Notes: generated by a model from the letters alone, not told the origin. A stretch of 64,000 nt of DNA from Fidelibacterota bacterium (GCA_014381925.1 JACNKR010000063.1:68867-132866), one strand, 5' to 3'. Positions 17,489 through 45,306 are shown, counted from the first letter of the stretch. A program made the numbers and translations.

Positions 17489-17542
17489 ACTAATTATCAA
17501 GTTTTATTATAACTTAAAAAAATATAATAAATTAATTTTTCA

Positions 17543-17551: not shown

Positions 17552-17604
17552 CTTTGTTTATAATGGGTATAACTTTTGTTTATTAAACAAACAAAAGAAA
17601 ATTG

Positions 17605-20570: not shown

Positions 20571-20582
20571 AGTTCTCCCTTT

Positions 20583-23558: not shown

Positions 23559-25352
23559 TTATTTTGAAAGTGCTATTGCAATGGAGGCAACATCTGAAGG
23601 GTTAACCCCTGCTATTCTTGAGGCCTGGCCTAGTGTTTCAGGTTTTAATCTTGTTAGCTTCTCTCTCGCCTCGTTAGATAGATTGTATATTTTATTGTAT
23701 GAAAAGTTTACATTAATTATTTTTTCTTCAAGAGATTTAGTTTTTTTTATTCTTTCCTCTTCTCTTATAATATATCCCTTATATTTAATAAACGTTTCTA
23801 CAGAGAATAAAACTTCAGCAGGAATAGAGTTAAAACCTTTCTCATTGGAAAGGTCTAAAAAAGAAATATCTCCCCTTAGAATGCTTTTATAAATAGAGTT
23901 CTGCTTTCTCTGGTTTTTGGTTAATATGCTCATTACATTGTTGTAGTTATTAATAAACTCTTCATAGGTAGAAGCTTGTACCTTCGTTAGTAAATTATGT
24001 TTAATTGCAGTTGGAGACAGCCGTAAGACCGCCGTGTCAGACCTTAAAAGAAGTCTATGTTCTGCGCTTGCAGTAAACATTCTGTATGGCTCGTTGATTT
24101 CTTTTGTTGTAAGGTCGTCTATTAATACTCCTATATATGCCTGATCTCTTGTAAGGACAAAACTTTTTTTATTTTCGATATATTTACATGCATTTATTCC
24201 AGCGATTAACCCTTGTGCCGCCGCCTCTTCATAACCTGAAGTGCCGTTAATTTGTCCTGCTGAAAATAAGCCTAAAACTGTTTTAGACTCTAGGGATCTT
24301 TTTAATTGTGATGGAACCAAATAGTCGTACTCAATTGCATAGCCAGGCCTAATGAGTTCGACATTTTTAAAGGCAGGGATTGTTTTTAGTGCAGATGTTT
24401 GTGTTTCTTTAGGCAGGCTTGTTGAAAATCCATTTAAATATATTTGTTTAGAATTTACCCATTCAGGCTCTAAAAACAGCTGGTGAAAAGGTTTATTTGA
24501 AAATCTAAAAACTTTATCTTCTATACTTGGACAATAACGAGGCCCCACTCCTTCTATTTTTCCAGAAAACATAGCAGATAGATGCATTTTTTTTAATATA
24601 TGTTTATGTGTTCGTGTAGATGTGTTTACAATATTACAATTATCATTTCTAGGAAAAAAGGGTCGCTTTGTATTTGTTGAGAAGGGAAAAGGGTTTTTCT
24701 CTCCTTTAGAAATTTCTGTTTTACTCCAATCAATTGAATTACTTAAAAGACGAGGCGGAGTTCCTGTTTTTAATCTCCCTGTTGTAAAGCCATGTTTGCT
24801 TAATGCCTCTGTTAATCCTGTTGATGGTATTTCGCCCATTCGTCCTGCCCTAAAAGTGGTATCTCCAATATGAATAAGTCCATTTAAAAAAGTTCCTGCG
24901 GTAATTATTAGGGCAGAGCATTTAATTTTCTTTTTAGATTTTAAAATAACATGAGAAACGGCTCCTCTGATTGTGTCAAAATCAACAACTTCACCTTTTA
25001 TTATGTTTATGTTCTTATTTGTTTTAACAAAGTTATTAATATAATTTGCATATTGAAGTTTATCAACTTGAGCTCGTGGACTCCAAACAGCCCGCCCTTT
25101 TGATTTATTTAATGTTTTGAACTGTAAACACGCTTTGTCAGCAAAAAACCCCATTGCACCACCAAGTGCATCAATTTCTTTAACAAGATGACCTTTTGCA
25201 AGACCCCCAATTGCGGGGTTACAAGACATTCTTCCAAGTGCTTTTGGGTCAAGTGTAATAATAGTAGCTTTAAAACCCATTCTTGAAATTGCAAGGGCAG
25301 CCTCTATCCCCGCATGTCCACCTCCAGCAATAATAATATTTTCATCTTTCAA
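23559..25352 (-). CDS. mnmG: tRNA uridine 5-carboxymethylaminomethyl modification enzyme MnmG (GidA)
   Basis: 597 aa with the N-terminal FAD motif IIAGGGHAGIEAA. Confidence 0.97.
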   Translation of the reverse strand: MKDENIIIAGGGHAGIEAALAISRMGFKATIITLDPKALGRMSCNPAIGGLAKGHLVKEIDALGGAMGFFADKACLQFKTLNKSKGRAVWSPRAQVDKLQYANYINNFVKTNKNINIIKGEVVDFDTIRGAVSHVILKSKKKIKCSALIITAGTFLNGLIHIGDTTFRAGRMGEIPSTGLTEALSKHGFTTGRLKTGTPPRLLSNSIDWSKTEISKGEKNPFPFSTNTKRPFFPRNDNCNIVNTSTRTHKHILKKMHLSAMFSGKIEGVGPRYCPSIEDKVFRFSNKPFHQLFLEPEWVNSKQIYLNGFSTSLPKETQTSALKTIPAFKNVELIRPGYAIEYDYLVPSQLKRSLESKTVLGLFSAGQINGTSGYEEAAAQGLIAGINACKYIENKKSFVLTRDQAYIGVLIDDLTTKEINEPYRMFTASAEHRLLLRSDTAVLRLSPTAIKHNLLTKVQASTYEEFINNYNNVMSILTKNQRKQNSIYKSILRGDISFLDLSNEKGFNSIPAEVLFSVETFIKYKGYIIREEERIKKTKSLEEKIINVNFSYNKIYNLSNEAREKLTRLKPETLGQASRIAGVNPSDVASIAIALSK

Positions 25353-25354
25353 GT

Positions 25355-26704
25355 TTATTTACCAATGCAAAATGATGAGAATAAATTGTTAAATATATCT
25401 TCGTTAGAAATTTTCCCCAATGTTTCTTCAAGAATTTCCGTAAACTCATGTAAGAGAGATGATAGCAAAACAAGGTCGGGTTCGTTATTTAATATGTTAA
25501 TTGCTTCGTTTAAAATACCAACAGTGCTTAATATTAATGCATGCTGTCTTTCGCTCATTACCACCGGATCTTTGGAGTAATTATAGCTAAGGCTATCCTT
25601 TAGGTGTGTGGATAACTCTGTGTATAACTGGTCAATCCCCGTGTTTGTTTTTGTAGATATTTTGATTAAATTTGTGCCTTTAATGTCGTTCAGGTTGAGA
25701 TCTGACTTGGTGTGAACAAGTATAATTTTTTTATTTAATAAATCCATGTTTTGTTGTTTATAAAAATTTAATGGATTCTCTTCATCAAGTAATAAAATAA
25801 TGTCAGCATTCTTAAATTCTTGCATTGATTTTTGAATTCCTAGTAATTCAACTTCATTATTTGATTCAATAATACCCGCGGTATCAATAATGCAAACAGG
25901 AATACCAGAAATTTCCAACCATGTTTCAATTGTATCTCTTGTTGTGCCGGGAATATTTGTAACAATTGCTTTTTCTGAACCAGATAAACGATTAAACAAT
26001 GACGATTTCCCCGCATTTGGTTTTCCAAATAAAACAACTCGAACCCCAACATTAATAGTCTTACCAAAACGGGAGCTGCTAATTATATTTTTTATGGTAT
26101 ATAAAATATTATTTAAAATTAATTTAATTTCTGAAGTTGTAGTAAAAGAAACTTCATCTTCGGCAAAATCTAATTCATGCTCTAAAATAGTTAAGAGAGT
26201 AATTACTTCTTTTCTAATATTTAATAAAGATTGTGATAAATCGCCGTTTAGATTGTTTAATTGAACTTTTGCATTTTTTGATGTTTTAGATGAAATTAAT
26301 CCAGAAATTGCCTCGGCTTGAATTAAATCAATTTTCCCATTTATAAATGCTCTATAAGAGAACTCGCCAGGCGAAGCCTGGCGAACTTTTAACGAATAAA
26401 GAAGGGCAAGTATTGCCTTTGGAATAAACTCACCTCCGTGGCTAGAAATTTCTAATATGTCTTCTCCGGTAAAACTATTTGGACCTTTAAAGTATGTTAT
26501 TAAACAATTATCTAGTTTGTTTCGATTAATGTCAACTATTGAATTATAATTTACATAGCGAGGCTGTGGAGGAGTTTTTTGATTTGTAATTCTTTTATAT
26601 AGAGAAATTAGATTTTGACCTGAAACTCTAATAACAGCAATGGCGCCTATTCCTGGAGGAGTTGCGAGTGCAACAATATCATCCTGAACAAGAGGCTTAA
26701 TCAT
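25355..26704 (-). CDS. mnmE: tRNA modification GTPase MnmE (TrmE)
   Basis: 449 aa with G-domain GKPNAGKSSLFN and DTAG motifs. It ends in the C-terminal FCIGK. Confidence 0.97.
   Translation of the reverse strand: MIKPLVQDDIVALATPPGIGAIAVIRVSGQNLISLYKRITNQKTPPQPRYVNYNSIVDINRNKLDNCLITYFKGPNSFTGEDILEISSHGGEFIPKAILALLYSLKVRQASPGEFSYRAFINGKIDLIQAEAISGLISSKTSKNAKVQLNNLNGDLSQSLLNIRKEVITLLTILEHELDFAEDEVSFTTTSEIKLILNNILYTIKNIISSSRFGKTINVGVRVVLFGKPNAGKSSLFNRLSGSEKAIVTNIPGTTRDTIETWLEISGIPVCIIDTAGIIESNNEVELLGIQKSMQEFKNADIILLLDEENPLNFYKQQNMDLLNKKIILVHTKSDLNLNDIKGTNLIKISTKTNTGIDQLYTELSTHLKDSLSYNYSKDPVVMSERQHALILSTVGILNEAINILNNEPDLVLLSSLLHEFTEILEETLGKISNEDIFNNLFSSFCIGK
25607..25615 (-). promoter_or_regulatory. 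perfect DnaA box (TGTGGATAA)
   Basis: Exact 9-mer inside the 3' part of mnmE. Confidence 0.5.
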
Positions 26705-28443
26705 TAAGTGGTGGAAAGTTTAGTCGTTTTTTTAAGGTTCCACTGTTGAATAATATTTAATATGTTTGAGGTAGCATAATATAAGTTTAGTCCAGAAGGA
26801 AATGAATTGAAAATTAAAAAGAAAAATCCAGTCATCATATACATAATTGGTTTTTGTGAACTATCCATTGTTGCGGAAGAAAATTTTTGCTGAAAGAACA
26901 TTGTTATCCCCATAAATAATGGTAAAATTGCAATATGAGCACCATAAATAGGGATAGAAAAAGGAAGGTTTACAATTATATCAGGCTGTGATAAATCTGT
27001 GATCCATAAAAAGAAAGGCTCCCCTCTAAATTCAATTGTTGTTCTAAAGGTAACAAATAACGCGAACAATAAAGGCATTTGGATAATTATTGGTAGACAT
27101 CCACCTAAAGGATTAACACTATGTTTTTTCCAAAGAGCCATTGTTTCTTTATTTAGCTTCATTGGATCATCTTTATATTTAGCTTGAAGCTTTTTTATTT
27201 GGGGTTGAAGCTGTTGAATTTTCTGATTTGATACGGTTGCTTTTTTTGTAAGTGGACCTGTTAATAGTCGAACAAGGAAAGCAAATAAAATTAGAACAAT
27301 GCCATAGTTTATTTGAAAGCCGGTGTATGGATTATGTAAAAATTTCAGTAATTTTAATATAAACTTAGAAATTGGGCGTATGAAAAAATAACCCCAATTC
27401 ATTGCTTCTTCGATATTAGAACCTGTTTTTTTCATTTCGGTTACATCTTGTGGCCCGAGATATAGCTTTCCTGAAAGAATATGTTCACTATCACTATGAC
27501 CAATATACATTTTATAACCAGGGGTAATATCTCTATCTCCAAAGCTTTTATTTTCAGCCTCAAAAGACCCGTAAATACCCTTATTATCCGGTATAATTGA
27601 GGCAATAAAATATTTTGTTTTTATAGAAGCCCAATCTGTTCTTCCGTCAAGAGATTCTAAATAAAGTTTATCTGGTGAATTTTGGTTTACTGATTCTTTA
27701 TCATCTACCTGCCAAATAACGCTTCCAGATTCTGTAATGTCATCATCTTTGTTTTTCTCTGTAGGTCTTAATGCTTTTGTCCATGCAATTTCTTTTGTAA
27801 AAGCTCCATCGTTTAAACTTTCAGTATTTACTGTATAGTTAAAATGATAAAAATCACCATTAACAATTAAAGATTTTTCGATGATGTTTCCAGAATTATC
27901 TTTAAAAGTAAAATCAAACTGTTTTGATTCGCCTTCTTTTATATTAAAGATTTGCCCATTTGTAATTTCTGTTGTAAACGGTCTATCAAAGAAAACTGGC
28001 TTATTAGACGAATGGTCTCTTAGTGCCAAGCAGGGCGCACAGGAATTCTCTTCAGGTAATAATATTGAAACAGGGGCTTCTTCATTATAGCTTCCATCAT
28101 CTAAATACCCGCCCATGTAATCTTTTAAAATAAAAGATCTAATTGTCCCTCCCCCTGAATTTGATATTTCAGCAGTGTATTTAGGGGTTTCAACGGTGAA
28201 TACAATTTCATTTTTAAAATCTTGGTATTGTTTGGACCGAAGCGCGTCGTCAGAATCTTCTATTTTTTGAATATATTCAAAATTATTGGACTGTTTTGAA
28301 TCTGTTAATTTTTTTTCTTCAAATTCTAAAGAAGTATTTTCAGGTTGAGGTGGAGAAATAAACTCCATATATTTAGGTGTAAGAAATAACACCACTAAAA
28401 TTAAAAGAAATGCGAGAAGTTGTTGTTTACCGGAATTTAACAT
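26704..28443 (-). CDS. yidC: membrane protein insertase YidC
   Basis: 579 aa with an N-terminal TM, a large periplasmic domain and the C-terminal 5-TM insertase core. Its position after yidD fits. Confidence 0.93.
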   Translation of the reverse strand: MLNSGKQQLLAFLLILVVLFLTPKYMEFISPPQPENTSLEFEEKKLTDSKQSNNFEYIQKIEDSDDALRSKQYQDFKNEIVFTVETPKYTAEISNSGGGTIRSFILKDYMGGYLDDGSYNEEAPVSILLPEENSCAPCLALRDHSSNKPVFFDRPFTTEITNGQIFNIKEGESKQFDFTFKDNSGNIIEKSLIVNGDFYHFNYTVNTESLNDGAFTKEIAWTKALRPTEKNKDDDITESGSVIWQVDDKESVNQNSPDKLYLESLDGRTDWASIKTKYFIASIIPDNKGIYGSFEAENKSFGDRDITPGYKMYIGHSDSEHILSGKLYLGPQDVTEMKKTGSNIEEAMNWGYFFIRPISKFILKLLKFLHNPYTGFQINYGIVLILFAFLVRLLTGPLTKKATVSNQKIQQLQPQIKKLQAKYKDDPMKLNKETMALWKKHSVNPLGGCLPIIIQMPLLFALFVTFRTTIEFRGEPFFLWITDLSQPDIIVNLPFSIPIYGAHIAILPLFMGITMFFQQKFSSATMDSSQKPIMYMMTGFFFLIFNSFPSGLNLYYATSNILNIIQQWNLKKTTKLSTT

Positions 28444-28450
28444 TTTTACC

Positions 28451-28663
28451 TTATTTTACTGGATCCCAATGATTATGTTTTGACCAAGGATGACACCGTC
28501 CAATTCGTTTTAATCCTTTTATAGAGCCGCCGAGTGCTCCATATTTATAAATTGATTCAATCATATAATGCGAACAAGAGGGGGAGTATCGACATGCTGG
28601 TGGCAATATGGTTCCAATTGTTAGTTGATATAATTTTACCAGACCGATTAGAAATTTAGTCAT
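28451..28663 (-). CDS. yidD: membrane protein insertion efficiency factor YidD
   Basis: 70 aa with CRYSPSCSHY and GRCHPW motifs. Confidence 0.93.
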   Translation of the reverse strand: MTKFLIGLVKLYQLTIGTILPPACRYSPSCSHYMIESIYKYGALGGSIKGLKRIGRCHPWSKHNHWDPVK

Positions 28664-28959
28664 ATTAATTTTTTTTTAATATTAGAAAAACCATTTAAAA
28701 GAGCGCTCCATGAAACAGTGGTTTTTAAAGGCTGAACAACAAGAACGACATTTTCATTAATAAAAAACTTATAAAACAAAGACCGACACCTTCGTTTAAA
28801 TAAATTTCTTTTTACAGCATTTCCATATTTTCTAGATACTATTAACCCTAAGTTTGAATTATTTTCAAAGCGGTATCTAAATAACAAATCCCCGATTATC
28901 AGGGATTTATAGGAGGAAAAAAAATGACGAAACTCTCGTTGTTCGAGTGCATACTTCAA
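28660..28959 (-). CDS. rnpA: ribonuclease P protein component
   Basis: 99 aa, basic, with a TTG start. It sits between rpmH and yidD. Its TGA stop overlaps the yidD ATG. Confidence 0.8.
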   Translation of the reverse strand: MKYALEQREFRHFFSSYKSLIIGDLLFRYRFENNSNLGLIVSRKYGNAVKRNLFKRRCRSLFYKFFINENVVLVVQPLKTTVSWSALLNGFSNIKKKLI

Positions 28960-28962
28960 AAT

Positions 28963-29097
28963 TTATGCAGAAAGTGTTTTTCTACCCTTTTGCCGTCGCC
29001 TAGCCATCATTGCTTTACCATTTTTAGTACGGGTTCTTTTTAAAAACCCGTGCTTGTTTCTTCTTTTACGATTACTTTTACGAATTGTTATTTTCAT
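28963..29097 (-). CDS. rpmH: 50S ribosomal protein L34
   Basis: Not in the ORF track because it is too short. My hand translation gives [44 protein letters not shown] (44 aa). Confidence 0.95.
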
Positions 29098-29432
29098 CAA
29101 TTATCCTAATTCTGTGTCTAAAATAGCCGAGTAATTTATAAAAGATTAACTATATAACCCTCAAGTTTAATTTACAAAAAATTTATTGAAATTTTGGTTG
29201 ATTTAGGCAGTAGATATTTTTAAGATTTAATTAATTTACTATTGATATTTTCTAATATTCATAAGGCTGTCCAATTGTTAGAGAGGTCAACACTATAATT
29301 GATGTATTTAAAATGGTACCATCAATCCTTTAAAATATATCCAACCTTATCGATTTTATTTATAATTATGTTCAATACGAGCTATAAACATTAATTTTTT
29401 TTCTATAACAGATGTATAATATTAAATTTCAA

Positions 29433-32677: not shown

Positions 32678-33133
32678 ATGGATTTACAAAATAAATATGC
32701 ACCAAAAAGTATATGCTTTGGCTGTGGACCTGCAAATGAGCATGGTTTAAAAATTCAAAGCATTCCTGACGGTGATAACGTTTATGCCGTTTTTCAACCC
32801 CAATCTCATCATCACGCATTTCCAAATATATTAAGTGGTGGAATAATTGGTACTCTTTTGGATTGTCATTCTAACTGGACGGCGGCATGGGCAATTATGA
32901 ATAATAGAAATGAAATTCAACCCCCATGTACAGTGACTGCTAAATATACAGTAAATTTATTAAAGCCCTGTCCTACAAAAACCCCTGTTAAGTTAATTGC
33001 ATCAATTGTAGAATTGAATAATAAAAAAGCAATTATTAAATCTGAATTAATTGCAGATGATATAATTTGTGCAACTTGTGATGGAATTTTTATTGCCGTT
33101 GAAGAGGGTCATCCCGCATATAATAGGTGGTAA
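32678..33133 (+). CDS. PaaI-family hotdog-fold thioesterase
   Basis: 151 aa. The N-terminal CFGCGPANEHGLKI is typical of this family. Confidence 0.7.
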   Translation: MDLQNKYAPKSICFGCGPANEHGLKIQSIPDGDNVYAVFQPQSHHHAFPNILSGGIIGTLLDCHSNWTAAWAIMNNRNEIQPPCTVTAKYTVNLLKPCPTKTPVKLIASIVELNNKKAIIKSELIADDIICATCDGIFIAVEEGHPAYNRW

Positions 33134-33134
33134 T

Positions 33135-33536
33135 ATGAAAAAAATTAATAAAACAAATGAACAATGGAAATGTGAATTGTCCCCTCTAGAATTTCATATC
33201 ACCCGAGAAGGAGGAACCGAAGCCCCTTTTTCAAACAAATTTGTAAATCATTTTGAGAATGGTACATATCAATGTGTGTGTTGTCGTGCAGATTTATTTA
33301 TTTCAAATCATAAATATAATTCAAAAACAGGATGGCCAAGTTATAATCAACCAATTAATGAAAATGTATTAACTGAAATTGAAGATAAGTCTTTAGGGAT
33401 AATTCGTACAGAAATTAAATGTTCTAATTGTGATGCACACTTAGGACATGTATTTCCCGATGAAAGCCAAAAAACAGGTCGACGGTACTGAATGAATTCA
33501 GTCGCTTTGAGGTTCAAAGAAAAAAAATCAGAGTGA
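33135..33536 (+). CDS. msrB: peptide-methionine (R)-S-oxide reductase MsrB with in-frame TGA (candidate selenocysteine) at the catalytic Cys position
   Basis: ATG 33135 gives MKKINKTNEQWKCELSPLEFHITREGGTEAPF. Two CxxC zinc motifs are present. The track ORF stops at TGA 33489..33491 in ...TGRRY-TGA-MNSVALRFKEKKSE. The extension ends at TGA 33534..33536 in a GTGA overlap with the next gene. Confidence 0.75.
33505..33519 (+). other. candidate SECIS-like stem-loop downstream of msrB UGA
   Basis: CUUUG-AGGUU-CAAAG forms a 5-bp stem starting 13 nt after the UGA. The apical loop contains GGU. The stem is weak and AU-rich. Confidence 0.35.
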
Positions 33537-35614
33537 AGAAAATACTTTTAACGGGTATTATTCTTTTTTTGGTTAGTTCGTGCTCACATAGTTTGCGATT
33601 TGTTGGTGAACACAAACATAGAGAAGTTACTATTTATAGAGATAATTGGGGTGTTCCCCATATTTATGGCAAAACAGATGCAGACGTTGCATTTGGATTG
33701 GCTTATGCACATGCTGAAGACGATTTAGAAAATATCGTCTTTTCATTATTAGCGGGAAGAGGGAAACTTGGTGAATATTTTGGTAAGGATCTCGCACCAA
33801 ATGATTATCTCGTTCAGCTTTTTGGTTTATGGGATAATCTCAAAAATAATTATAATAAACTCGATAGTGAAACAATTAAACTTTGCAATGCCTATGCCGA
33901 AGGGTTTAATCATTATTTATTAAAACATCAACCAAAAGATATACCTAAAGAAGTATATCCGGTCAAAGGTGAAGATTTAGTTGCCGGGTTTATGCATAAA
34001 ACGCCATTTTTTTATGGATTAAATAAAGTGCTCTCCCAAGTAATGGTAGATAAATACCCACAAGAAACAAAAATGTATTCTTATTTTCCCGAGGTTTATG
34101 GTGAATCAATGGGTTCTAATGTATTTGCTGTTTCACCATCCCGAAGTAAAAATGGGCACACCTTGTTTATGAGCAATACCCATCAGCCATGGAATGGTCC
34201 TACCGCATGGTATGAAGTACATTTACATAGCGAAGAGGGGTGGAATACGGTTGGCGGATTATTTCCTGGTTCTCCAATTATTTTAGTAGGACATAATGAA
34301 AATTTAGGATGGTCACATACTGTAAATAATCCAGATTTAATTGATGTTTATGAATTGGAGTTGTCAGGGGATGACCTTTTAAAATATAAAGTTGATGATG
34401 AATGGCTTGATCTTGAAGAAATACCTATTTCATTTAAAGTCAAATTAATCGGACCTATAAAATTAAATATAACTCAAACAGGCTATCGTTCAATATTTGG
34501 ACCTGTTTTTGAAAGTGAATCCGGTAAAAAGTATGCAATTCGATTTCAAGGCATGGATGATGTTCGCGTTGTAGAACAATGGTATAAAATGAACAAGGCA
34601 TCAAATTTTAATGAATGGAAAGATGCAATGTCGATAACGGCTATACCAAGTTTTAATACGGGCTACGCAGATAAAGATGGAAATATATTCTATGTCTATA
34701 ATGCTAAATTTCCTACTCGTTCGCCCGGGTATAATTGGCGAGGATTATTACCTGGCAATACCAAAGAAACACTCTGGGGAAATAATATTTCATTTTCAGA
34801 GCTTCCACAAGTAATGAACCCAGCCTCTGGATTTATTCAAAATTGTAATAGTTCTCCTTTCGAAACAACAGATGGCAATGATAATCCCGAGGAATCTCAT
34901 TTCCCTGAATGGCTAGGCATTGAAACGATTATGACAAATAGAGCATTACGGTCTTTAGAATTATTTGGAGATGATAAACATATTTCATATGATGAAATGA
35001 TGAAATATAAATATGACTTAAAATATTCTGAAAAATCAAATATTGTTAAAATTATTAAAAGAACAGATGAAATTATAACAAATGATCCACTTTTATTTTC
35101 AGCCATACATATTTTACAAAAATGGAATTTAGAAACAAATATTCAAAACCCACATACTGCATTTGTAATTTTTAGTCTTTTTAAATTTATTGAAGATAAC
35201 CCCTCGCAAATTAATTTAAATGAATTAGAAGATCATCTTTTGCTCAATGCAAAAAAATTCAATAAATGGTATGGAGGATTAGAAGTTCCATGGGGAGAAG
35301 TTAATCGATTAATTCGTGGAAATATCAATTTACCCTTAAATGGAGGGCCAGATATAAACCATGCCATATATGGATCTCCACAAAAAAATGGGATATTAAA
35401 AGGGGTAGCGGGCGACTGTTTTATAATTTATGCTGAATGGGACAAGAATGGAAGAGTCAGCTCACAAAGTATTCATCAATTTGGTTCTACACAAAACATG
35501 GATTCTAAACATTATAATGATCAGGCAATTTTATTTAGCCAGAAAAAGATGAAGCCTGTTTTATTTGAACTATATGAAATTAAAGAAAAAGCAGAACAAA
35601 TTTATAAACCCTAA
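33533..35614 (+). CDS. S45 penicillin-amidase-family Ntn-hydrolase acylase (PvdQ/aculeacin-acylase-like)
   Basis: 693 aa with a GTG start and a lipoprotein-like signal (VSSC). It has VTIYRDNWGVPHIYG and a MGSNVFAV nucleophile-Ser motif. Confidence 0.8.
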   Translation: MKKILLTGIILFLVSSCSHSLRFVGEHKHREVTIYRDNWGVPHIYGKTDADVAFGLAYAHAEDDLENIVFSLLAGRGKLGEYFGKDLAPNDYLVQLFGLWDNLKNNYNKLDSETIKLCNAYAEGFNHYLLKHQPKDIPKEVYPVKGEDLVAGFMHKTPFFYGLNKVLSQVMVDKYPQETKMYSYFPEVYGESMGSNVFAVSPSRSKNGHTLFMSNTHQPWNGPTAWYEVHLHSEEGWNTVGGLFPGSPIILVGHNENLGWSHTVNNPDLIDVYELELSGDDLLKYKVDDEWLDLEEIPISFKVKLIGPIKLNITQTGYRSIFGPVFESESGKKYAIRFQGMDDVRVVEQWYKMNKASNFNEWKDAMSITAIPSFNTGYADKDGNIFYVYNAKFPTRSPGYNWRGLLPGNTKETLWGNNISFSELPQVMNPASGFIQNCNSSPFETTDGNDNPEESHFPEWLGIETIMTNRALRSLELFGDDKHISYDEMMKYKYDLKYSEKSNIVKIIKRTDEIITNDPLLFSAIHILQKWNLETNIQNPHTAFVIFSLFKFIEDNPSQINLNELEDHLLLNAKKFNKWYGGLEVPWGEVNRLIRGNINLPLNGGPDINHAIYGSPQKNGILKGVAGDCFIIYAEWDKNGRVSSQSIHQFGSTQNMDSKHYNDQAILFSQKKMKPVLFELYEIKEKAEQIYKP

Positions 35615-36279: not shown

Positions 36280-36597
36280 ATGCCACTTGCAAAAATAGAT
36301 ACATTTGATAACTCCGATAAGCAATTAGCAGATATAGCGAAAGCACTTTCTCATCCCGCTCGTATTAATATTCTTCGAATATTAAATGAGCGTAATTCTT
36401 GTATTACCGGAGAGATTGTTGATCTAATCCCCTTATCCCAATCAACGGTAAGTCAACACTTGAAGGAATTAAAACGGGTGAATCTAATAAAAGGGGAGAT
36501 TGAAGGTCCACGCACATGTTACTGTCTTAATGAAGATGTCGTTGAAAAAACAAAATCTGTATTTACAAAACTGTTTTCAACATTTAAGTGTTGTTAA
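36280..36597 (+). CDS. arsR: ArsR/SmtB-family metalloregulator
   Basis: 105 aa with wHTH ALSHPARINILRIL...STVSQHLKELK. It carries Cys pairs CYC and a C-terminal CC. Confidence 0.85.
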   Translation: MPLAKIDTFDNSDKQLADIAKALSHPARINILRILNERNSCITGEIVDLIPLSQSTVSQHLKELKRVNLIKGEIEGPRTCYCLNEDVVEKTKSVFTKLFSTFKCC

Positions 36598-36622
36598 ATA
36601 AAAATTAAAAAAAGGTAGAAAA

Positions 36623-37405
36623 ATGGAAAACAATGAAATGAAAAATATAGTCCAGGAAAAATATGCTGAAATTGCTACAGAAAATACATCTTGCTGTGGA
36701 TCTAATCCAGCAACAGATTATTCCGCTTTTAACTTAGATTATACCCGTTTAGACGGATATGTAGAGGATGCTGATCTACATCTTGGATGTGGTATTCCAA
36801 CAGAGCATGCTAATATCAAGCAGGGCGACACAATTGTCGACTTGGGTTCTGGTGCAGGAAACGATGTTTTTGTAGTTAGAAGCATTATTGGAGACAAGGG
36901 CAAGGTTGTTGGTATAGATATGACGCCTGAAATGGTTGATAAAGCAAATATGAATAAAGAAAAGCTCGGTTTTGAAAATGTTGAGTTCAAATTGGGTGAC
37001 ATTGAGAATCTTCCACTTGATGATGAAATAGGTGATGTGGTTGTGAGTAATTGCGTTCTTAATCTTGTGCCGGATAAAGAAATAGCTTTTAATGAGATTC
37101 ATCGTATTTTAAAACCAGGCGCACATTTTTGTGTTTCCGACATTGTGCTTGAAGGTCAAGTTCCACCAGAATTGAAAAAATCAGCAGAAATGTATGCAGG
37201 ATGTGTCTCTGGTGCTTTACAGAAAAATGAATATCTGGAAATAATTGAGAAAGTCGGGTTTAAAGATATTGAAGTGAAAAAAACTCGCGAAATTGTTTTA
37301 CCTCAAAATTTAATTCAATCATTTATGGATGATTCGCAATATGAAAAATATAATAAAAGCAATATAGGTATTTATAGCATTACGGTGGTGGCTACAAAAA
37401 AATAA
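36623..37405 (+). CDS. arsM: arsenite S-adenosylmethionine methyltransferase (ArsM-like)
   Basis: 260 aa. It has the SAM motif VDLGSGAGND and conserved Cys at SCCG, LGCGIP and AGCVSGA, as in ArsM. It lies directly after arsR. Confidence 0.8.
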   Translation: MENNEMKNIVQEKYAEIATENTSCCGSNPATDYSAFNLDYTRLDGYVEDADLHLGCGIPTEHANIKQGDTIVDLGSGAGNDVFVVRSIIGDKGKVVGIDMTPEMVDKANMNKEKLGFENVEFKLGDIENLPLDDEIGDVVVSNCVLNLVPDKEIAFNEIHRILKPGAHFCVSDIVLEGQVPPELKKSAEMYAGCVSGALQKNEYLEIIEKVGFKDIEVKKTREIVLPQNLIQSFMDDSQYEKYNKSNIGIYSITVVATKK

Positions 37406-37449
37406 CATATTTATCCATCCTTATGGATTTACTAAAATTGTTGAAGAAT

Positions 37450-37482
37450 AAAGTAATGGTGAAATTTATTGGTGAATAAATA
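37450..37482 (+). repeat. 33-bp direct repeat copy B (relic 3' end, 18-codon ORF MDLLKLLKNKVMVKFIGE*)
   Basis: AAAGTAATGGTGAAATTTATTGGTGAATAAATA. Two of the three differences from copy A are synonymous in the KVMVK(I/F)IGE* frame. Confidence 0.8.
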
Positions 37483-37504
37483 AAAATTTAGCCCTTCACA
37501 CAAT

Positions 37505-37522
37505 CCTCTCTAGTTAGAGAGG
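37505..37522. terminator. bidirectional hairpin terminator between convergent arsM and OMP genes
   Basis: CCTCTCTA-GT-TAGAGAGG is a perfect inverted repeat with AT-rich flanks on both sides. Confidence 0.6.
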
Positions 37523-37544
37523 AAATTAATTACTTTACTCTTAT

Positions 37545-38450
37545 TTAATTCAGTATTTCTCTTATGCTCAAGGAAATTGTCTTACCAATTAATTGACTGC
37601 CTTCTAGGTCATGATTAAACGGCTGATCATACATTAAAGATATTGAGCGAGTATTGGTCCATTTGTATTCTAAACCAACAGCACCATTTAATTGTTTTTT
37701 TGCAGAATTATTTTCAATCATTCCAATGCCTATTTCAGATGTACTATTTATGAAACGAAGTTTAAAATATGGATAAATTTCACCATAAACAGCTACCTGT
37801 CTAAGGGTTTGCAATTGAAGGTTGATTGAATTCCCCGGTTTATATCCTATGTCGCTTTCTGTAATGGGAACAGATGCAGAACCTGATACACCAAATACCC
37901 ACGGGAATTTAGATCTCCACCACCACTCAAAACCAAGAGAGCCTGAATATTGACCGGTACCTAATCTTAAACTTTTATCCTCCTCTGTTATTTTTTGACC
38001 TGTTGGTAATGTTATTTTACCATTAATAAATAATTTTTGTCCTGGCCCCATAACATTATTTTTTACTATCCAACGAAGATTTACAGAAATATCGCCCAAC
38101 CCTTTTTTAATTTTATTTTTATGTTCTGAATCAGGGCTTTCTTCAACATTATATTGATTCCATCTTTTAAATGGAATACTAACAAAAGCATTGATGTTTT
38201 CAGTTATTCCAAACATACCGTAAACATTTAACAAATTTAAATCTACATTGCCTTCTAACTCTATATTATTATCTGACTCAAAAGTCATATATGACATGCT
38301 GGTGCCAAGCATAATTTGATTACTACTTAAACCAACTCCTTCTGTTGCACTTCCGACCGAAAGTGTCGGGCTACTTCAAAGAGGGCATTGTGCAAATAAT
38401 AAGATTGGAAATAAACCAACTAATAAAGTAAATAATAATTTCTGTTTCAT
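37545..38450 (-). CDS. outer-membrane beta-barrel protein (MetA-pathway/transporter-like) with signal peptide joined through in-frame TGA: candidate CxxU selenoprotein
   Basis: Track ORF 37545..38312 lacks a signal peptide. The same frame continues upstream through 21 sense codons, then one TGA (38376..38378), then MKQKLLFTLLVGLFPILLFAQCPL from ATG 38450. A GLGDISVNLRW motif and a beta-strand pattern lie downstream. Confidence 0.65.
38348..38369 (-). other. candidate SECIS-like GC-rich stem-loop downstream of the OMP UGA
   Basis: The RNA is UGA-AGUAGCCCGACACUUUCGGUCGGAAGUGC. It has two alternative 5-bp stems: CCGAC/GUCGG, or CACUU/AAGUG with loop UCGGUCGG. The segment is about 62% GC in an AT-rich genome. 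Confidence 0.5.
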
Positions 38451-38507
38451 GATTTTTCTTTCTGTTTTTTATTTCAATTATATCTTAGATTGGATATTGC
38501 TAAGAAA

Positions 38508-39131
38508 TTAACAACAATAATTATTTTTATTTTGAGCTTTCTTAAAAGATTCTCTTCCTTCTTTAAAAGCAAAATAAGCAATTATTATTGAGCCTATTGC
38601 ATCTATTTGTTTAAATTCAAATAATTCATACCCAATACAGGAAATAAGTAAAACAAATGACAACTGCATACACACCTTTGTACAATTTGCATCAGCTATA
38701 ATTGCATCAGAATTTAATTTTTTACCTATTTCTAATTTTTCATGTACCAACCACCACATTACAATAATAGAACTTGTTGATACAATAATTCCCCAAAATG
38801 TAGTTATTGGATGAATTCCATAAATTAAATTATAAATTGATGTAATTGAAATCCCTAATGTTAATAGATAAAAAGAAGCTCCTGTAATTTGTAAAGCCCT
38901 TTTTTCAAATTGGTCTCTTTCATTAACATGATTTTTATTTACCCGTAGCATCATGTGAAAAATACCAATCCCTGAAATAACTTCTACAAATGAATCTAAC
39001 CCAAAACCAAACAAAGATAAAACTTCATCATCTAACCCAAAATATATAGAAATAATTCCTTCTATTAAATTATATACAATTGTAAAAATTGCTAATAAAA
39101 TTGCACGATTTATATTTGTATTACCCCTCAT
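38508..39131 (-). CDS. cation-transporter membrane protein (CDF-like transmembrane domain only), C-terminal CC
   Basis: 207 aa with about 6 TM, a GLDSFVEV motif and a tail ...NKNNYCC. It overlaps the czcA stop by 11 nt. Confidence 0.45.
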   Translation of the reverse strand: MRGNTNINRAILLAIFTIVYNLIEGIISIYFGLDDEVLSLFGFGLDSFVEVISGIGIFHMMLRVNKNHVNERDQFEKRALQITGASFYLLTLGISITSIYNLIYGIHPITTFWGIIVSTSSIIVMWWLVHEKLEIGKKLNSDAIIADANCTKVCMQLSFVLLISCIGYELFEFKQIDAIGSIIIAYFAFKEGRESFKKAQNKNNYCC

Positions 39132-42100
39132 CTGAAAACCATTGAAATAATGCGGGGATTACAAGTAAAGTTAAAATAGTTGAAGTAAACAACCCGCCGA
39201 CTACTACGGTTGCCAAAGGTCGTTGAACTTCGCTACCAGCTCCCGATGCAAATAGTAAAGGAAGCAATCCTAAAGATGTTGTTAATGCAGTCATTAATAC
39301 AGGCCTTAGTCTTAATTGAGCACCTTTAATAGATGCTTCATATTTTGTTGCCCCTTCTTTTACTAATTGATTCATATATGATAACAACACCATTCCATTT
39401 TCTAAAGCAATTCCAAAGAGAGCAATAAATCCAACAGAAGATGGAACAGATAAATTTTGCCCCGTGAGCCAAAGTGCAACAATTCCCCCTACAAGAGCGA
39501 GAGGAATATTGAGTAAAATAAGAAGTGAGTTTTTTAGAGAATTAAAACTAATAAACAATAATAAGAAAATAATAATTAGAGTAATTGGAACTACTACTGC
39601 TAGTCGTTTATTTGCTTCTTGTTGAAGCCGAAATTGTCCACCCCAATTAAGTAAATAACCTGGAGGTAAAACAACCTTCTCCTGAATTGCACTTTTTCCC
39701 TCTTCAACAAACGAGCCAATATCTCTATCAGAAACATTACATTGTATTGTGATAAATCGTTGATTATTTTCTCTTGTGATTTGGCGTGGCCCTGTAATTT
39801 CTTGGATATCAACTAATTCCGACAATGGAATGTTTATTCCACGAGGAGATTGCACAACTATATTAGAAATTGCCTCAACAGAATTTCTATATTTTTCTTC
39901 AAATCTAACTGTAATATCAAACCGTCTATTTCCTTCAAATATTTCTCCCACTTTTTCACCACCTATAGAAGAATGAACTATCTCTTGAATATCAGATATA
40001 TTTATACCATATCGAGCAATTGCCTGCCTATTAATCGTTATAAGTAATTGAGGAGTACCTGAAACTTGATCGACTTGTACATCATCAGCGCCAGGCACTT
40101 CACGAATAACGGCTGAAATTTTATCAGCTTTTGCTTTAAGTATTTCTAAATCATCTCCAAAAAGTTTAATTGCAAGCTCTGCTTTAATTCCTTCTAACAA
40201 TTCATCTACATTCATTGCAATAGGCTGAGTAATATTAACCAAAACGCCAGGCACATCATCAAGAGTTTCGCGAATTATACTTTCTAATCCATCTTGATTT
40301 AAATTAGGTCTCCAATTTCCTTTTTCAGCTAATATTACATACATTTCTGCACTATTTACAGGGTCTGCATGAGCCCCCACTTCACCTCTTCCTATTCGAG
40401 AAACAACGGAAGTAATTTCAGGAATACTCATCAATCTTTTTTCTATTGCTAGTGTGGTTTTTTTACTTTCGGTCAACGAAATAGATGGTGCCATTGAAAC
40501 CCTTACCACAATAGATCCTTCATTTAATTTTGGGGTAAACTCAGATCCTAATTGTGGAAAAATTGTAATTCCAGCTAATATTAAAAACACCGCTAAACTA
40601 ACAGCAATCGTTCTGTTTTTTACAAAATGAGTGATAATTGGAGTGTAAAATTTATTGAGTATTTTTACCAGCCAAATTTCTTTTACTAATTTTAAATCTT
40701 TCGGAATTTTTAGAACAAAGGTAGATAAAACAGGAGCAATTATTGTTGCATAAATCAAAGACCCAAACATTGCGATTGCGATTGTATATGCAAGAGGTCT
40801 AAATGTTTTTCCTTCTACGCCTTGCAAGGTAAATAAAGGTAAAAATACAATTATAATTATAATTATTGCAAAACTTACGGGTTTTATTACTTCTAAAAAT
40901 GCACTTGATATTAATTGTTTTTTCGATTTAGAATGCCCTGAACTTTTTAATACTTTTTCGATATTTTCAATAACAACAATTGCACCATCAACTAACATTC
41001 CAATCGCAATTGCTAATCCACCAAAAGACATTAAATTAGCCGAAATATTAAAGTAGTTCATTCCAATCATTGCAAATAAAACTGAAAATGGAATGGATGC
41101 CGCAACAACGATGCTTGGTCTAATTGAGCCCATAAAAATAAATAATATCAATACGACAAGAATAATTCCCTGTAATAATGCATTACTTACTGTTTTCACA
41201 CAAGCAGTTACTAGTGTTTTCTGTTCATAATATGGTACAATTTTAATTCCTTTGGGTAAAATATTATTTATTTCATCCATTTTTGTTTCAACTTGGCCTA
41301 TTACTGATGATGAATTAGTACCATAGAGCTTTACCACCATACCCGAAACAACCTCGCCTATTCCATTGTAAGTTTGAATACCTCGCCGTATTGCACCTCC
41401 AATTTCTATATTTGCAACTTCTTTAAGTAAAACGGGTGTACCAGATTCAGATTTAAGAATAATATTTTCAATATCCTCAATTCCAGACGCTAACCCAACG
41501 GAACGCACAATAAATTCTTCAGAGTTTTTTTCAATAAATTGTGCACCAACATTCAAATTATTATTTCTAATTTTTTCAATCACATCTTGAATCGTAATGT
41601 CATATTGCAATAGTGAAAAAGGGTTTATATTTACTTGATATTGTTTTTCATAACCACCAATTCCTAAAACTTCGGTAACCCCAGGTACTGTTTGAAGATG
41701 GAATTTGACAATCCAATCCTGAATAGATCGTAATTCTTCAAGAGAATATTGTCCACTTTCATCATCTAAATAATAAAACAATATTAACCCCATCCCTGTA
41801 GAAATTGGACCCATCTCGGGTTCTCCAAATCCTTCTGGGATTTGTTCTCTTGCTTCTTGAATTCGTTCATTTACCAACTGTCTAGCAAAATAAAGATCTG
41901 TTCCATCCTTAAAGTAAATATTCACGACTGATAATCCAAAATTAGAGACAGATCGAATTTTTGCTAATTCAGGCAAACCATTCATTGCAACCTCCACAGG
42001 ATATGTTACATATTTTTCTACTTCTTCAGGAGCAAGACCTTCAGTTGTTGTAAATACTTGTACTAAATTTGGTGATACATCGGGGAAAGCATCAATTGGA

Positions 42101-42198
42101 AGCTGTTTGTAACTGGTATAACCTGCGCCTAAAATAAGTACAGAAATTGTCAATATTAATAATCGATTTTGTAAAATAAATTGAATTAATTTTCCCAC
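39121..42198 (-). CDS. heavy-metal efflux RND pump, CzcA/CusA family
   Basis: 1025 aa with a GTG start and 12-TM RND architecture. Sequence is HME-type throughout. Confidence 0.92.
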   Translation of the reverse strand: MGKLIQFILQNRLLILTISVLILGAGYTSYKQLPIDAFPDVSPNLVQVFTTTEGLAPEEVEKYVTYPVEVAMNGLPELAKIRSVSNFGLSVVNIYFKDGTDLYFARQLVNERIQEAREQIPEGFGEPEMGPISTGMGLILFYYLDDESGQYSLEELRSIQDWIVKFHLQTVPGVTEVLGIGGYEKQYQVNINPFSLLQYDITIQDVIEKIRNNNLNVGAQFIEKNSEEFIVRSVGLASGIEDIENIILKSESGTPVLLKEVANIEIGGAIRRGIQTYNGIGEVVSGMVVKLYGTNSSSVIGQVETKMDEINNILPKGIKIVPYYEQKTLVTACVKTVSNALLQGIILVVLILFIFMGSIRPSIVVAASIPFSVLFAMIGMNYFNISANLMSFGGLAIAIGMLVDGAIVVIENIEKVLKSSGHSKSKKQLISSAFLEVIKPVSFAIIIIIIVFLPLFTLQGVEGKTFRPLAYTIAIAMFGSLIYATIIAPVLSTFVLKIPKDLKLVKEIWLVKILNKFYTPIITHFVKNRTIAVSLAVFLILAGITIFPQLGSEFTPKLNEGSIVVRVSMAPSISLTESKKTTLAIEKRLMSIPEITSVVSRIGRGEVGAHADPVNSAEMYVILAEKGNWRPNLNQDGLESIIRETLDDVPGVLVNITQPIAMNVDELLEGIKAELAIKLFGDDLEILKAKADKISAVIREVPGADDVQVDQVSGTPQLLITINRQAIARYGINISDIQEIVHSSIGGEKVGEIFEGNRRFDITVRFEEKYRNSVEAISNIVVQSPRGINIPLSELVDIQEITGPRQITRENNQRFITIQCNVSDRDIGSFVEEGKSAIQEKVVLPPGYLLNWGGQFRLQQEANKRLAVVVPITLIIIFLLLFISFNSLKNSLLILLNIPLALVGGIVALWLTGQNLSVPSSVGFIALFGIALENGMVLLSYMNQLVKEGATKYEASIKGAQLRLRPVLMTALTTSLGLLPLLFASGAGSEVQRPLATVVVGGLFTSTILTLLVIPALFQWFSDEG

Positions 42199-42286
42199 AA
42201 TAGCTTTCCCCTTTTTTATCTAACCATTAACTTTAAATATGATTCAAATATGTTAATTGATTAAAGTTGTAATTCTTAATTTCTAA

Positions 42287-43249
42287 TTAATGATTATGAC
42301 CACCGCCAAATGAAGATTTAGCTATTTGGGCTTTCAATATAAAACCACCTTTTTTAACATATTGTTGACCAATTTTTAATCCTGACAATATTTCTACAAA
42401 TTCAGAATTTTGTTGACCAATTTTTATATTAATAGGTTCATATCCATGTTCATTTTTTGTAAAGACTACATCTAAACCTTTTATAGTTTCAATTGCTGTT
42501 TTTGGAATCATAATACTACAACTAGATTGACTAATGGTAACAAACCCGGTAATAAACTGTCCTGGCCGAAGCCATCCATATGAATTAGAAAGCACTACTC
42601 GAGCAATTGCTGTTCGTGTATGTTCATCAATTGTAGGTGATATAAATGAAATTTCGCCCGATATTGAAGGAAAATCTTTTTTAATTAAAACATTTACAGT
42701 TTGTCCAATTTTTAATTGTGTCAAATATTTTTGATAAACGCTTAAATTCAACCATACTTTTGAAAGATTTGCGATTGCAAAGAAATTATCTGAATTTTGA
42801 GCCGTTTCTCCTTTTGTAAAGTGCATATCAATTATAATACCATTAATTGAAGATTTTAACTCATAAACGGTAAGACTTTCATTACTTTCAATAATTGCAA
42901 GTAAATCACCCTCGTTAACTTTATCACCAATTTGTTTATAAACCTCTTTTACTAATCCACCAAAACGAGGAGTAATATGCACCAGTCTATCAGGATCCAG
43001 CTGTATTTCTCCAGGTAATTCAATTGTTTTATTTAAAATGCCACTTGAAGCAATATCAACCTCAGCCCCAAATTCAAAAAGTACTTTTTCAGTAATATTT
43101 TCTTTATGATCTTCATGATCACCATGTCCAGAATGGCTTTCATGTTCCTGTATTGAATAATTATTTTGATGTGAATTCACCATTTCTTTTGTAACCCAAA
43201 AGGTAATGAGTGCTGTTATAATTATTGTACTAAGTATAATTTTTTTCAT
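42287..43249 (-). CDS. efflux RND periplasmic adaptor (CzcB/CusB-like) with His-rich termini
   Basis: 320 aa with an N-terminal anchor, then HESHSGHGDHEDHKE, a lipoyl/beta-barrel MFP core and a C-terminal GGGHNH. Confidence 0.85.
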   Translation of the reverse strand: MKKIILSTIIITALITFWVTKEMVNSHQNNYSIQEHESHSGHGDHEDHKENITEKVLFEFGAEVDIASSGILNKTIELPGEIQLDPDRLVHITPRFGGLVKEVYKQIGDKVNEGDLLAIIESNESLTVYELKSSINGIIIDMHFTKGETAQNSDNFFAIANLSKVWLNLSVYQKYLTQLKIGQTVNVLIKKDFPSISGEISFISPTIDEHTRTAIARVVLSNSYGWLRPGQFITGFVTISQSSCSIMIPKTAIETIKGLDVVFTKNEHGYEPINIKIGQQNSEFVEILSGLKIGQQYVKKGGFILKAQIAKSSFGGGHNH

Positions 43250-43280
43250 TTAACTAAAGCCCTAAATTTTATTATATTCA

Positions 43281-44087
43281 TCAATGATTATGATGATGAT
43301 CGTCATTGTCATTGTCATTGTGATTATGTTGATGCTCCTCTTCATGATGCTGGGTATCATCTTCTGTATTTTTTTCTAAATGAGTTTCATGAAGGTGTTG
43401 AATTTCTAATTTATCAGTTATTGCTTTTGCAGAATAATATCCATTTAATTGAAATACGAGTAAAAATGAGCCTGCAATTATTAACATCCAATTTGTCACT
43501 ATTGAAATATTAGATAATTTTTTCCGTAACAAAAGTAATATTGGAAAAGCGATTACTAAAGCTGTTATTTGCCCAATTTCAACACCTGCATTAAAAGATA
43601 AAATTTTATAAACTAATTGATGGTGTCCCAAGTCAATTTGTTGCAAACGAGTTGAAAGGCCAAACCCATGAATTAATCCAAATATAAACACCATAAAAAC
43701 TTTATTTGGTACATTTATGGATAACCATTTATTGAAACCATCAAGATTTTCAAATCCTTTATAAATAACACTGAATGCAATTACAGCATCAATTAAATAA
43801 TAATTTGCATTTATCTCATAAAATGTAGCAAAAATAAGAGTGATACTATGTCCTATGGTAAATGCTGTGATAAATTTTGCAATGTCAGCAAGTCGGGATA
43901 AAAAGAAAATCACTCCAATTAAAAACAATATATGATCATAGCCTGTTATCATATGTTTTGCTCCTAGTATAAAAAAATCTGAAAGCCCACCTTGAACCAT
44001 TTCCACCTTATCCGATTCTGACACACCATGTGCAAAGATAAATGAAGGTAAACACAATATTGATAATTTTAAAAATAAGTTTTTCAT
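43281..44087 (-). CDS. HupE/UreJ-family membrane protein with His/Asp-rich C-terminal tail
   Basis: 268 aa with a signal peptide followed by HGV, and multiple TM segments. The tail is HLHETH...HHEEEHQHNHNDNDNDDHHHNH. Confidence 0.65.
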   Translation of the reverse strand: MKNLFLKLSILCLPSFIFAHGVSESDKVEMVQGGLSDFFILGAKHMITGYDHILFLIGVIFFLSRLADIAKFITAFTIGHSITLIFATFYEINANYYLIDAVIAFSVIYKGFENLDGFNKWLSINVPNKVFMVFIFGLIHGFGLSTRLQQIDLGHHQLVYKILSFNAGVEIGQITALVIAFPILLLLRKKLSNISIVTNWMLIIAGSFLLVFQLNGYYSAKAITDKLEIQHLHETHLEKNTEDDTQHHEEEHQHNHNDNDNDDHHHNH

Positions 44088-44088
44088 T

Positions 44089-45306
44089 TTAATTTTCTCC
44101 TAAAAATGAGTGATTTGTTCTCCCGAGAATACGATTAATTTCCCAGGTTTTATTATGATAGTCTTGAAGAGCATTTAAATATTGAATCTGAGATAGAAAC
44201 CACATTTCTTTAGCATCTACAACCTCTAAATAAGTATATCGTCCATTCATATATCCATCCATTATAATTGAATATGCTGAATTTGCTTCAGGTATAATCA
44301 TTGTTTCCAATAGTATAATCTCAGATTTAATTTCATTTAATGAATTGATAATATTTTCAATTTGAGAATTAATATCATTTTTTATTTTTATTAATTCAAG
44401 TTGAGTCATTTCTAATACAGAAAGTTCTCGGTTAATATTGCCATTATTTTGATTAAAAAGAGGAATAGGTAATGTTACCCCTAATTGGAAAGAATTCCCT
44501 AATTCATTTTTTTTTATTCCTGTTCCAAATTCAATATCTGGTATTATTTTTAATTTTTCTAATTTAACTTTTATATTTTGAATTTGAATTTGAATGTTTG
44601 CTTGAACTATTTTAGGTGCAATATTTATATTAAATTCATTATTTATTTTAAATGGTGTGGAAAAATGATATAAATCTGATAAATGTCCTACTGCAATATT
44701 ATAAGACAAACTATTATCTTCATAAAATGTAGATAATGAATTCCAGGCATTGGGTAATTGGTTTTCAATTTTCAATAATTTTATTTTTTCTTGATATAAT
44801 TGAATTTTTGCCCGAGATGCTTCAACGGGAGAAAATTTACCTGCAATAACTTTCTTTTTTACCGCTTCTAATAATTCTTCAGAAATTAATATTCGGTTTC
44901 TCTGAAGTGATTTCATTTCCTGATAAAAAAGAATTTCGATAAATAAGTGATATGATTCATTTAAAACCTGAGATTTTTGTTCATCATATTCTAATTTGGC
45001 TAAATTTAATTCAAATTCTCTTAATTGAATATTTTGTTTTCGTTTCCCTCCAAGTAAAATATCTTGAGTAAGCATTCCACTTATCTCGGGTTCAATTCCA
45101 AAATCAGATTCAATTGACAAGTTTGGATTAGAAAATTTTCGACTTTGTTTTAATTGCGCCGTTTTTACTTCAACATTTTTTTTACTTAACTTAAGTATTG
45201 AATTATGTTGAAGGACAATATCTGTAAGCGTATTAATATTTAGTTCTTGACTAAAAGTACACGATATTAAAATGACATAAATTAGCCATTTAATTAATAA
45301 ATTCAT
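44089..45306 (-). CDS. TolC-family outer membrane efflux protein (CzcC-like)
   Basis: 405 aa with a signal peptide and coiled-coil/beta repeats typical of OEP. It occupies the first structural position of the RND operon. Confidence 0.8.
   Translation of the reverse strand: MNLLIKWLIYVILISCTFSQELNINTLTDIVLQHNSILKLSKKNVEVKTAQLKQSRKFSNPNLSIESDFGIEPEISGMLTQDILLGGKRKQNIQLREFELNLAKLEYDEQKSQVLNESYHLFIEILFYQEMKSLQRNRILISEELLEAVKKKVIAGKFSPVEASRAKIQLYQEKIKLLKIENQLPNAWNSLSTFYEDNSLSYNIAVGHLSDLYHFSTPFKINNEFNINIAPKIVQANIQIQIQNIKVKLEKLKIIPDIEFGTGIKKNELGNSFQLGVTLPIPLFNQNNGNINRELSVLEMTQLELIKIKNDINSQIENIINSLNEIKSEIILLETMIIPEANSAYSIIMDGYMNGRYTYLEVVDAKEMWFLSQIQYLNALQDYHNKTWEINRILGRTNHSFLGEN

Follow-up and report, generated by a model that had tools for sequence, protein, structure and literature searches.

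Methionine-R-sulfoxide reductase B (MsrB) is found with cysteine or selenocysteine (Sec) as its catalytic residue, and the Sec/Cys pairs of this enzyme are a textbook system for why enzymes adopt selenium. The known natural Sec-MsrBs are all eukaryotic so far: animal examples (MsrB1, Metridium) are established, and algal ones have been reported. In MsrB1 (selenoprotein R/X) and the algal enzymes, which belong to the same family, a UGA codon places Sec at the catalytic position. His77, Val81, and Asn97 have changed to Gly, Glu, and Phe in MsrB1, and its Cys4 is needed for thioredoxin-dependent recycling; a Sec-MsrB without a resolving Cys was reported not to be recycled by thioredoxin (Kim & Gladyshev, PMC1278935).

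A known bacterial methionine sulfoxide reductase that carries Sec instead of the catalytic Cys is MsrA (Clostridium/Alkaliphilus oremlandii OhILAs; GOS metagenome), whose fold is unrelated to that of MsrB (PF01625) and whose stereospecificity is opposite. MsrA is part of the cataloged bacterial selenoproteome (PMC2398784, PMC9312934, PMC13188914). No entry for MsrB, SelR, or PF01641 is found in the GOS selenoproteome table (PMC2398784), in the table of a 2022 review (PMC9312934), or in a May 2026 review of more than 110 families (PMC13188914). The families in BSepDB were collected through homology to ones already reported.

Here we describe an msrB gene with an in-frame TGA from Candidatus Marinimicrobia/Neomarinimicrobiota (SAR406; now Fidelibacterota at NCBI). 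It lies in a window of 64,000 nucleotides, by which we mean the whole stretch of DNA that was analyzed; exact sequence matches of six proteins of the window assign it to a MAG of this group, on a contig of 157,795 bp. The gene and its closest relatives form a clade of ten members. The clade shares with Cys-type bacterial MsrB (TIGR00357/PF01641; PDB 6sym, 137 aa; PDB 2k8d) the same fold-defining sequence, the two CxxC zinc motifs, His102, His105, Asp109, Arg117, Asn121, and the C-terminal strand, and many proteobacterial Cys-type proteins are ~55% identical to the MsrB of the window. It differs from them in the UGA for Cys, a D(E/N/K)SQKTG loop, Asn71, Thr/Ser/Phe at position 65, and a new Cys13. 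As in MsrB1, the UGA stands at the catalytic position and there is an extra N-terminal Cys that Cys forms lack (Cys4 in MsrB1, Cys13 in the clade). Unlike MsrB1, however, the clade keeps His102, Val106, and Asn121 where MsrB1 has Gly, Glu, and Phe, and has Thr28 at the Cys4 position. The SECIS element of MsrB1 is a kink-turn in the 3'-UTR, whereas the candidate element of the clade is inside the ORF. Because His102, Val106, and Asn121 are kept, the clade is not of the MsrB1 type and would represent an independent conversion of Cys to Sec on a bacterial scaffold; its origin is also independent of MsrB1 because it is closest to bacterial Cys forms. The clade is most likely a bacterial Sec-MsrB that is absent from the above prokaryotic selenoprotein catalogs, and an uncataloged mention may exist elsewhere.

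The msrB gene and its in-frame TGA

The msrB gene is on the plus strand and begins with an ATG at 33135, one base past the stop of the upstream gene. Its ORF reads ...HLGHVFPDESQKTGRRY (also given as ...CDAHLGHVFPDESQKTGRRY) and then meets a TGA at 33489..33491, the proposed Sec codon. The same frame goes on as MNSVALRFKEKKSE (33492..33533), which contains the active-site Asn121, up to a second TGA at 33534..33536. This proposed true stop overlaps the GTG start (33533) of an acylase gene. The full recoded frame (33135..33536) therefore consists of 118 codons, the UGA (proposed Sec119), 14 codons, and a stop. The recoded product has 132-133 residues, and the TGA-ended product has 118.

When the TGA is translated as Cys, the product matches Pfam SelR/PF01641 with E=3e-47 over profile positions 1-115 of 116. 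The domain match covers residues 15-128 and so spans the TGA. The product scores 173 bits against the NCBIfam MsrB equivalog TIGR00357 (cut-off 113), and its alignment with MsrBs of known structure in the PDB (down to E=5e-40) extends over the full length. The first zinc motif, C47-V-C-C50 (33273..33284), is invariant in the clade, and its partner motif is C96-S-N-C99 (33420..33431). These four cysteines together with H102, H105, D109, and R117 are invariant or nearly so. The nucleophile motif is R117-Y118-[UGA]-M120-N121, and a catalytic nucleophile there requires decoding of the UGA as Sec or Cys.

The TGA falls in the Cys column of the MsrB family alignment. That column is Cys in all 110 aligned Cys-type homologues, and the codon is TGC (125) or TGT (31), never TGA, in 156 of 156 other bacterial msrB loci. 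The 156 loci came from scans of metagenome and genome collections. These scans returned almost only Cys forms because the search patterns (CDAHLGHV etc.) are family-wide, and we used them as the control set. The preliminary description of this DNA had placed the TGA at the catalytic Cys of MsrB, had followed the frame into the overlap with the next gene, and had pointed to the C-terminal strand retained beyond the TGA; the alignment, the coordinates, and the comparison of relatives below agree with it on all three points, and its interpretation as a candidate Sec-MsrB is supported. From these comparisons we consider it likely that the gene encodes a full-length methionine-R-sulfoxide reductase B in which the UGA at 33489..33491 is read as Sec in place of the catalytic Cys.

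Conservation of the TGA across the clade

Among 5.8 billion clusters, the ten best homologue clusters (64-97% identity; 65 member sequences) all end in ...G(K/R)RY, that is, directly before the TGA. The homologues ranked after those ten are at most 61% identical, run to full length, and carry RYC(I/V)NS. The ten clusters come from ENA, JGI, Logan, and NCBI, and represent independent assemblies from different samples. For the DNA comparison, we used nine of the clusters and took the window itself for the tenth (P0001, 97% identical). All ten have TGA at the catalytic Cys codon. Thus the comparison of TGC or TGT with TGA in related genomes, which the preliminary description had proposed, gave TGA throughout, down to 64% identity, with no TGC or TGT. 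A profile built from the ten and searched against the 5.8 billion clusters recovered the same ten at 232-241 bits, and the next Cys forms followed at 178. From this drop we conclude that the clade is discrete and has no Cys-containing member. The nearest Cys form (P0011, 61% identity) was considered as an orthologous TGC allele and ruled out, since it is not syntenic.

The order of a 151-aa gene, msrB, and the acylase gene is the same wherever the contigs of the relatives reach the neighboring genes. In every relative, the second stop reaches 4-8 nt into the beginning of the next gene (the L161 contig ends before this point). The peptide after the TGA, (M/I)NS(V/I/S/A)(A/S)L(R/S)FKE, is kept in 10/10 members and corresponds to the canonical last strand of MsrB. 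Its codons vary synonymously: the Asn at +2 is AAT or AAC and the Ser at +3 is TCA, TCT, TCC, or TCG, with the amino acids fixed. Decay of the 14 codons was not seen in any clade member. By the usual comparative criterion the part after the TGA is translated, because the codons vary while the peptide stays fixed. Upstream of the TGA, the conserved residues H102, H105, D109, and R117 would have no purpose in a protein lacking residue 119. That all ten members share the TGA, its downstream frame, and the hairpin described below is more than chance.

The database entries of the clade all end at residue 118 or use an upstream alternative start (115-136 aa). Because gene callers end msrB at 118 aa in all the entries seen, an active enzyme of an abundant ocean phylum would be systematically mis-annotated. 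In the NCBI record of the window, the protein accessions run from MBC8197885 to MBC8197902; 888 belongs to YidC and 896 to the acylase, and the genes lying between the two, msrB aside, number exactly seven. Judged from this numbering, msrB seems to have no protein accession.

A conserved hairpin downstream of the UGA

A small hairpin, CUUUGA-GGU-UCAAAG, is present at 33505..33519 with its loop at 33511..33513, corresponding to nt 17-31 counted from the U of the UGA. It begins 13 nt past the UGA and allows two drawings, one with 6 bp and a GGU triloop, the other with 5 bp and an AGGUU loop. The stem-loop, its GGU, and its weakness had been noted in the preliminary description, and we found each of these. 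Across the clade, the hairpin is invariant in 10/10 members except for G or U at the second loop base, and the RNAalifold consensus structure of the ten is exactly CUUUGA / G(G/U)U / UCAAAG. None of the 156 Cys-type msrB loci has all six pairs of a 6-bp hairpin in the same register.

The hairpin is the part of msrB most conserved at the nucleotide level. Upstream of the TGA, just 10 of 112 third-codon positions are the same in all ten sequences, compared with 5 of 6 in the hairpin codons; other 6-codon windows of msrB have at most three invariant ones. The three longest invariant nucleotide runs in msrB are UACUGAAU around the UGA (33486..33493), CUUUGAG, and UUCAAAGAA, the latter two being the hairpin arms. 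The codon choice is also unusual. The hairpin encodes its Leu by TTG and its Phe by TTC, and TAC encodes the Tyr that precedes the UGA; all three codons stand in 10/10 members, and each is a 10% codon for its amino acid in this genome. At the other invariant Leu, Phe, and Tyr columns of msrB the codons are TTA, TTT, and TAT and vary between sequences. The invariance of UACUGAAU and the minor Tyr codon TAC suggest that selection also acts on the nucleotides directly around the UGA.

We compared the hairpin with the SECIS element of E. coli fdhF, whose sequence was verified against 5,419 genomes. The upper hairpin of the fdhF SECIS occupies nt 15-31 with a GGUC loop at 22-25, and the clade hairpin occupies nt 17-31 with its loop at 23-25. 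As the two registers coincide, they share the same 3' edge (nt 31) and the position of the G-U in the loop. The fdhF SECIS is ~40 nt long, GC-rich, has a bulged U, and reaches -14.9 kcal/mol over the 48 nt folded. The clade hairpin, in contrast, is 15 nt long and AU-rich, with about -3.8 kcal/mol, no bulge, and no lower stem. Its stability is no better than that of shuffled sequences (z -0.2 to -0.9), and single-sequence folding in the window gives a different MFE structure. No covariation is seen in the stem among the ten sequences because the stem never varies; this neither supports nor contradicts pairing. An Rfam search of the window gave no SECIS match and nothing else relevant. The hairpin lies 7-13 nt upstream of the acylase start, a spacing that differs between relatives. 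Because of this proximity, initiation of acylase translation may account for some of the nucleotide conservation, in the A-rich 3' part.

Other features near the UGA were considered and rejected. A pairing of nt 14-22 with nt 40-48 (-8.6 kcal/mol) is specific to the window and is not conserved in L001 or other relatives. A second hairpin that would bury the UGA (ACUGAA-N4-UUCAGU) is 83% paired, is broken in 3/10 members, and shows no covariation. Re-initiation at the AUG directly after the UGA was also rejected, as that codon is AUC or AUU in 5/10 relatives.

In the mechanism that we propose, the hairpin at nt 17-31 with its G(G/U)U loop would act as a minimal in-ORF bacterial SECIS and bring SelB, loaded with GTP and Sec-tRNA(Sec), to a ribosome that has paused at the UGA. 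The last β-strand (MNSVALRF...) would then be completed, and translation would end within the region of the next gene's start codon. Sec119 would attack Met-R-sulfoxide through its selenolate, and the selenenic acid may be resolved by the clade-specific Cys13 and then reduced by a thiol system. Such a case would show how a SECIS can be fitted into a strongly constrained coding strand with six codons, in a genome of 31% GC, which is relevant to SECIS search models; these miss some real cases.

Active-site changes in the clade

We compared the ten clade members with the 110 Cys-type homologues at the protein level. In the Cys-type proteins, the active-site loop is D-G-P-x-P-T-G, with the G in 110/110 and each of the two P in 109/110. 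In the window the loop is D-E-S-Q-K-T-G (33459..33479), and in the clade it is D-(E/N/K)-S-Q-K-T-G, with K or H at the second P position. The aromatic residue after GWPSY (position 71) is Asn in the clade, and Leu116 is replaced by Lys or Arg. The clade-specific remodeling of the loop suggests a change in chemistry.

The resolving cysteines known from other MsrBs are missing in the clade. Thr28, the Thr of the GTE motif, is invariant and stands at the position of the mammalian MsrB1 Cys4. Position 65, a common bacterial resolving-Cys site that is Cys in 38/110 Cys-type homologues, is Thr, Ser, or Phe. Glu25 is found at approximately the Xanthomonas resolving-Cys site. Cys13 (33171..33173) is present in 7/10 clade members and absent in the other three, and it occurs in 1/110 Cys-type homologues. 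It is a candidate for the resolving residue. The lack of Cys at the known resolving positions, and of Cys13 in three members, weighs against a Sec-MsrB, given the report that such an enzyme was not recycled by thioredoxin when it had no resolving Cys (PMC1278935). The change from DGPxPTG to D(E/N/K)SQKTG and the gain of Cys13 may be Sec-linked protein changes that co-evolved.

If so, the bacterial clade would be a natural independent replicate of the Cys-to-Sec switch in MsrB with an unusual active-site solution. It keeps the His, Val, and Asn that are reported to impair the mammalian Sec enzyme, has none of the known resolving cysteines, and has changed a loop that is otherwise invariant.

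Alternative explanations for the in-frame TGA

All the evidence for translation past the UGA would fit equally well if the inserted residue were not Sec. Cys could be delivered by a tRNA-Sec-like tRNA-Cys/SelB-like system, or Trp or Cys could be inserted by context-stimulated near-cognate read-through. Mukai et al. are said to have described such a tRNA-Cys system in some bacteria. The atypically small size of the hairpin for a SECIS is in line with this explanation. So is the local gene content, as no selA, selB, or selD among the ORFs scanned and no tRNA-Sec were found in the 64-kb window or in ~10 kb beyond it, and the one tRNA in the window is tRNA-His. The weak hairpin and the missing Sec genes in this stretch also count against the Sec reading itself. 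However, the recoded site is precisely the redox-active Cys, and a second recoded site in the same window has a CxxU context, the classical Sec signature. Also, TGC or TGT would give Cys for free, so that keeping UGA for Cys across a deep clade would need a special reason, and the remodeled loop points to changed chemistry. Peng et al. (2016) reported selD in three SAR406 single-cell genomes, where it is an 'orphan' in those incomplete genomes (PMC5029168), and this also argues for Sec. Overall, insertion of a residue other than Sec appears unlikely, and it is the least improbable of the alternatives. A general reassignment of TGA as a sense codon was ruled out. When all six frames were scanned for TGAs that connect coding-looking segments in frame, just two cases were credible, msrB and an outer-membrane-like gene; long ORFs are intact, and Trp is encoded by TGG 200 times. 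The 42 ORFs of at least 200 codons in the window stop at TAA (36), TAG (4), or TGA (2), and TGA is thus a rare stop in this genome of 30.7% GC.

The remaining explanations deny that the UGA is read through at all. If it were a real stop, the product would be a dead or repurposed MsrB-like zinc domain of 118 residues, and the hairpin and A-rich tract downstream would be a leader or translational-coupling element for the acylase gene. TGA does terminate other genes of this genome, a 118-aa product is what gene callers annotate, and the hairpin stands just ahead of the acylase start. But a non-coding leader would not be expected to keep the exact MsrB C-terminal motif (I/M)NS.(A/S)L.F with synonymous changes, H102, H105, D109, and R117 would be useless without residue 119, and the spacing from hairpin to acylase start is not constant (7-13 nt). 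We regard this explanation as unlikely too, slightly more so than incorporation of a different residue. A recent nonsense mutation in an ordinary msrB is easy to propose, as TGT or TGC becomes TGA by a single-base change and the NCBI record apparently has no protein accession for the gene, which is inferred from the accession numbering. Yet ten clusters share the same TGA, with identities down to 64% and saturated synonymous sites, and both halves of the ORF are intact, without frameshifts and with conserved synteny. Their divergence also excludes a single assembly artefact behind the ten sequences, and an identical TGA in independent ENA, JGI, Logan, and NCBI assemblies from different samples speaks against a sequencing or assembly error at the Cys codon. 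Since the TGA, the downstream frame, and the synteny are kept in ten diverged clusters, we treat both explanations as excluded: a pseudogene is very improbable, and an error is hardly credible.

We therefore return to Sec-MsrB as the preferred reading. The clade probably represents a new prokaryotic selenoprotein family, a Marinimicrobia Sec-MsrB that would be independent of MsrB1, with the Cys-type His/Val/Asn kept, a remodeled loop, its own N-terminal Cys, and a putative 15-nt SECIS in the coding region of the C-terminal strand. Taken together with the CxxU outer-membrane protein described below, it would point to a selenoproteome so far unrecognized in one of the most abundant deep-ocean phyla.

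Neighboring genes and a second candidate selenoprotein

The preliminary description had mentioned a second TGA case, in an outer-membrane protein 5 kb away, and we found its TGA conserved in a 75%-identical homologue. The gene is on the minus strand (37545..38468). Its product resembles an outer-membrane barrel and has a signal peptide, after which comes C-P-L-UGA-S, with the TGA at 38378..38376. Its Pfam match, to Phenol_MetA_deg, is weak. The homologue (L169, 2613..3511) retains the TGA together with its CPL-U-S context, as well as an invariant GC-rich hairpin, CCGACACUUUCGGUCGG, which contains GGUC. Only two homologue clusters were found among the 5.8 billion, both called from a downstream ATG. 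We consider this protein a candidate CxxU selenoprotein, and the gene may give indirect support for Sec decoding in this organism.

Upstream of msrB, the conserved 151-aa gene (32678..33133, plus strand) ends 1 nt before the msrB ATG and has no Pfam or NCBIfam match. It always precedes msrB, carries an N-terminal CxGCG motif, and is probably co-transcribed with msrB. The downstream gene (33533..35614, plus strand), whose start overlaps the msrB end, encodes a penicillin-amidase/PvdQ-like acylase lipoprotein of 693 aa.

The surroundings of the outer-membrane-like gene (36280..45306) form a metal-handling neighborhood. It includes an ArsR-type regulator, an ArsM-like SAM methyltransferase (Cys form), a cation-diffusion facilitator, a CzcA-like RND pump, a membrane-fusion protein, HupE/UreJ, and an outer-membrane efflux protein. 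A replication-origin-type cluster with gyrB, dnaN, mnmG, mnmE, yidC, yidD, rnpA, and rpmH is located at 12999..29100 of the window.
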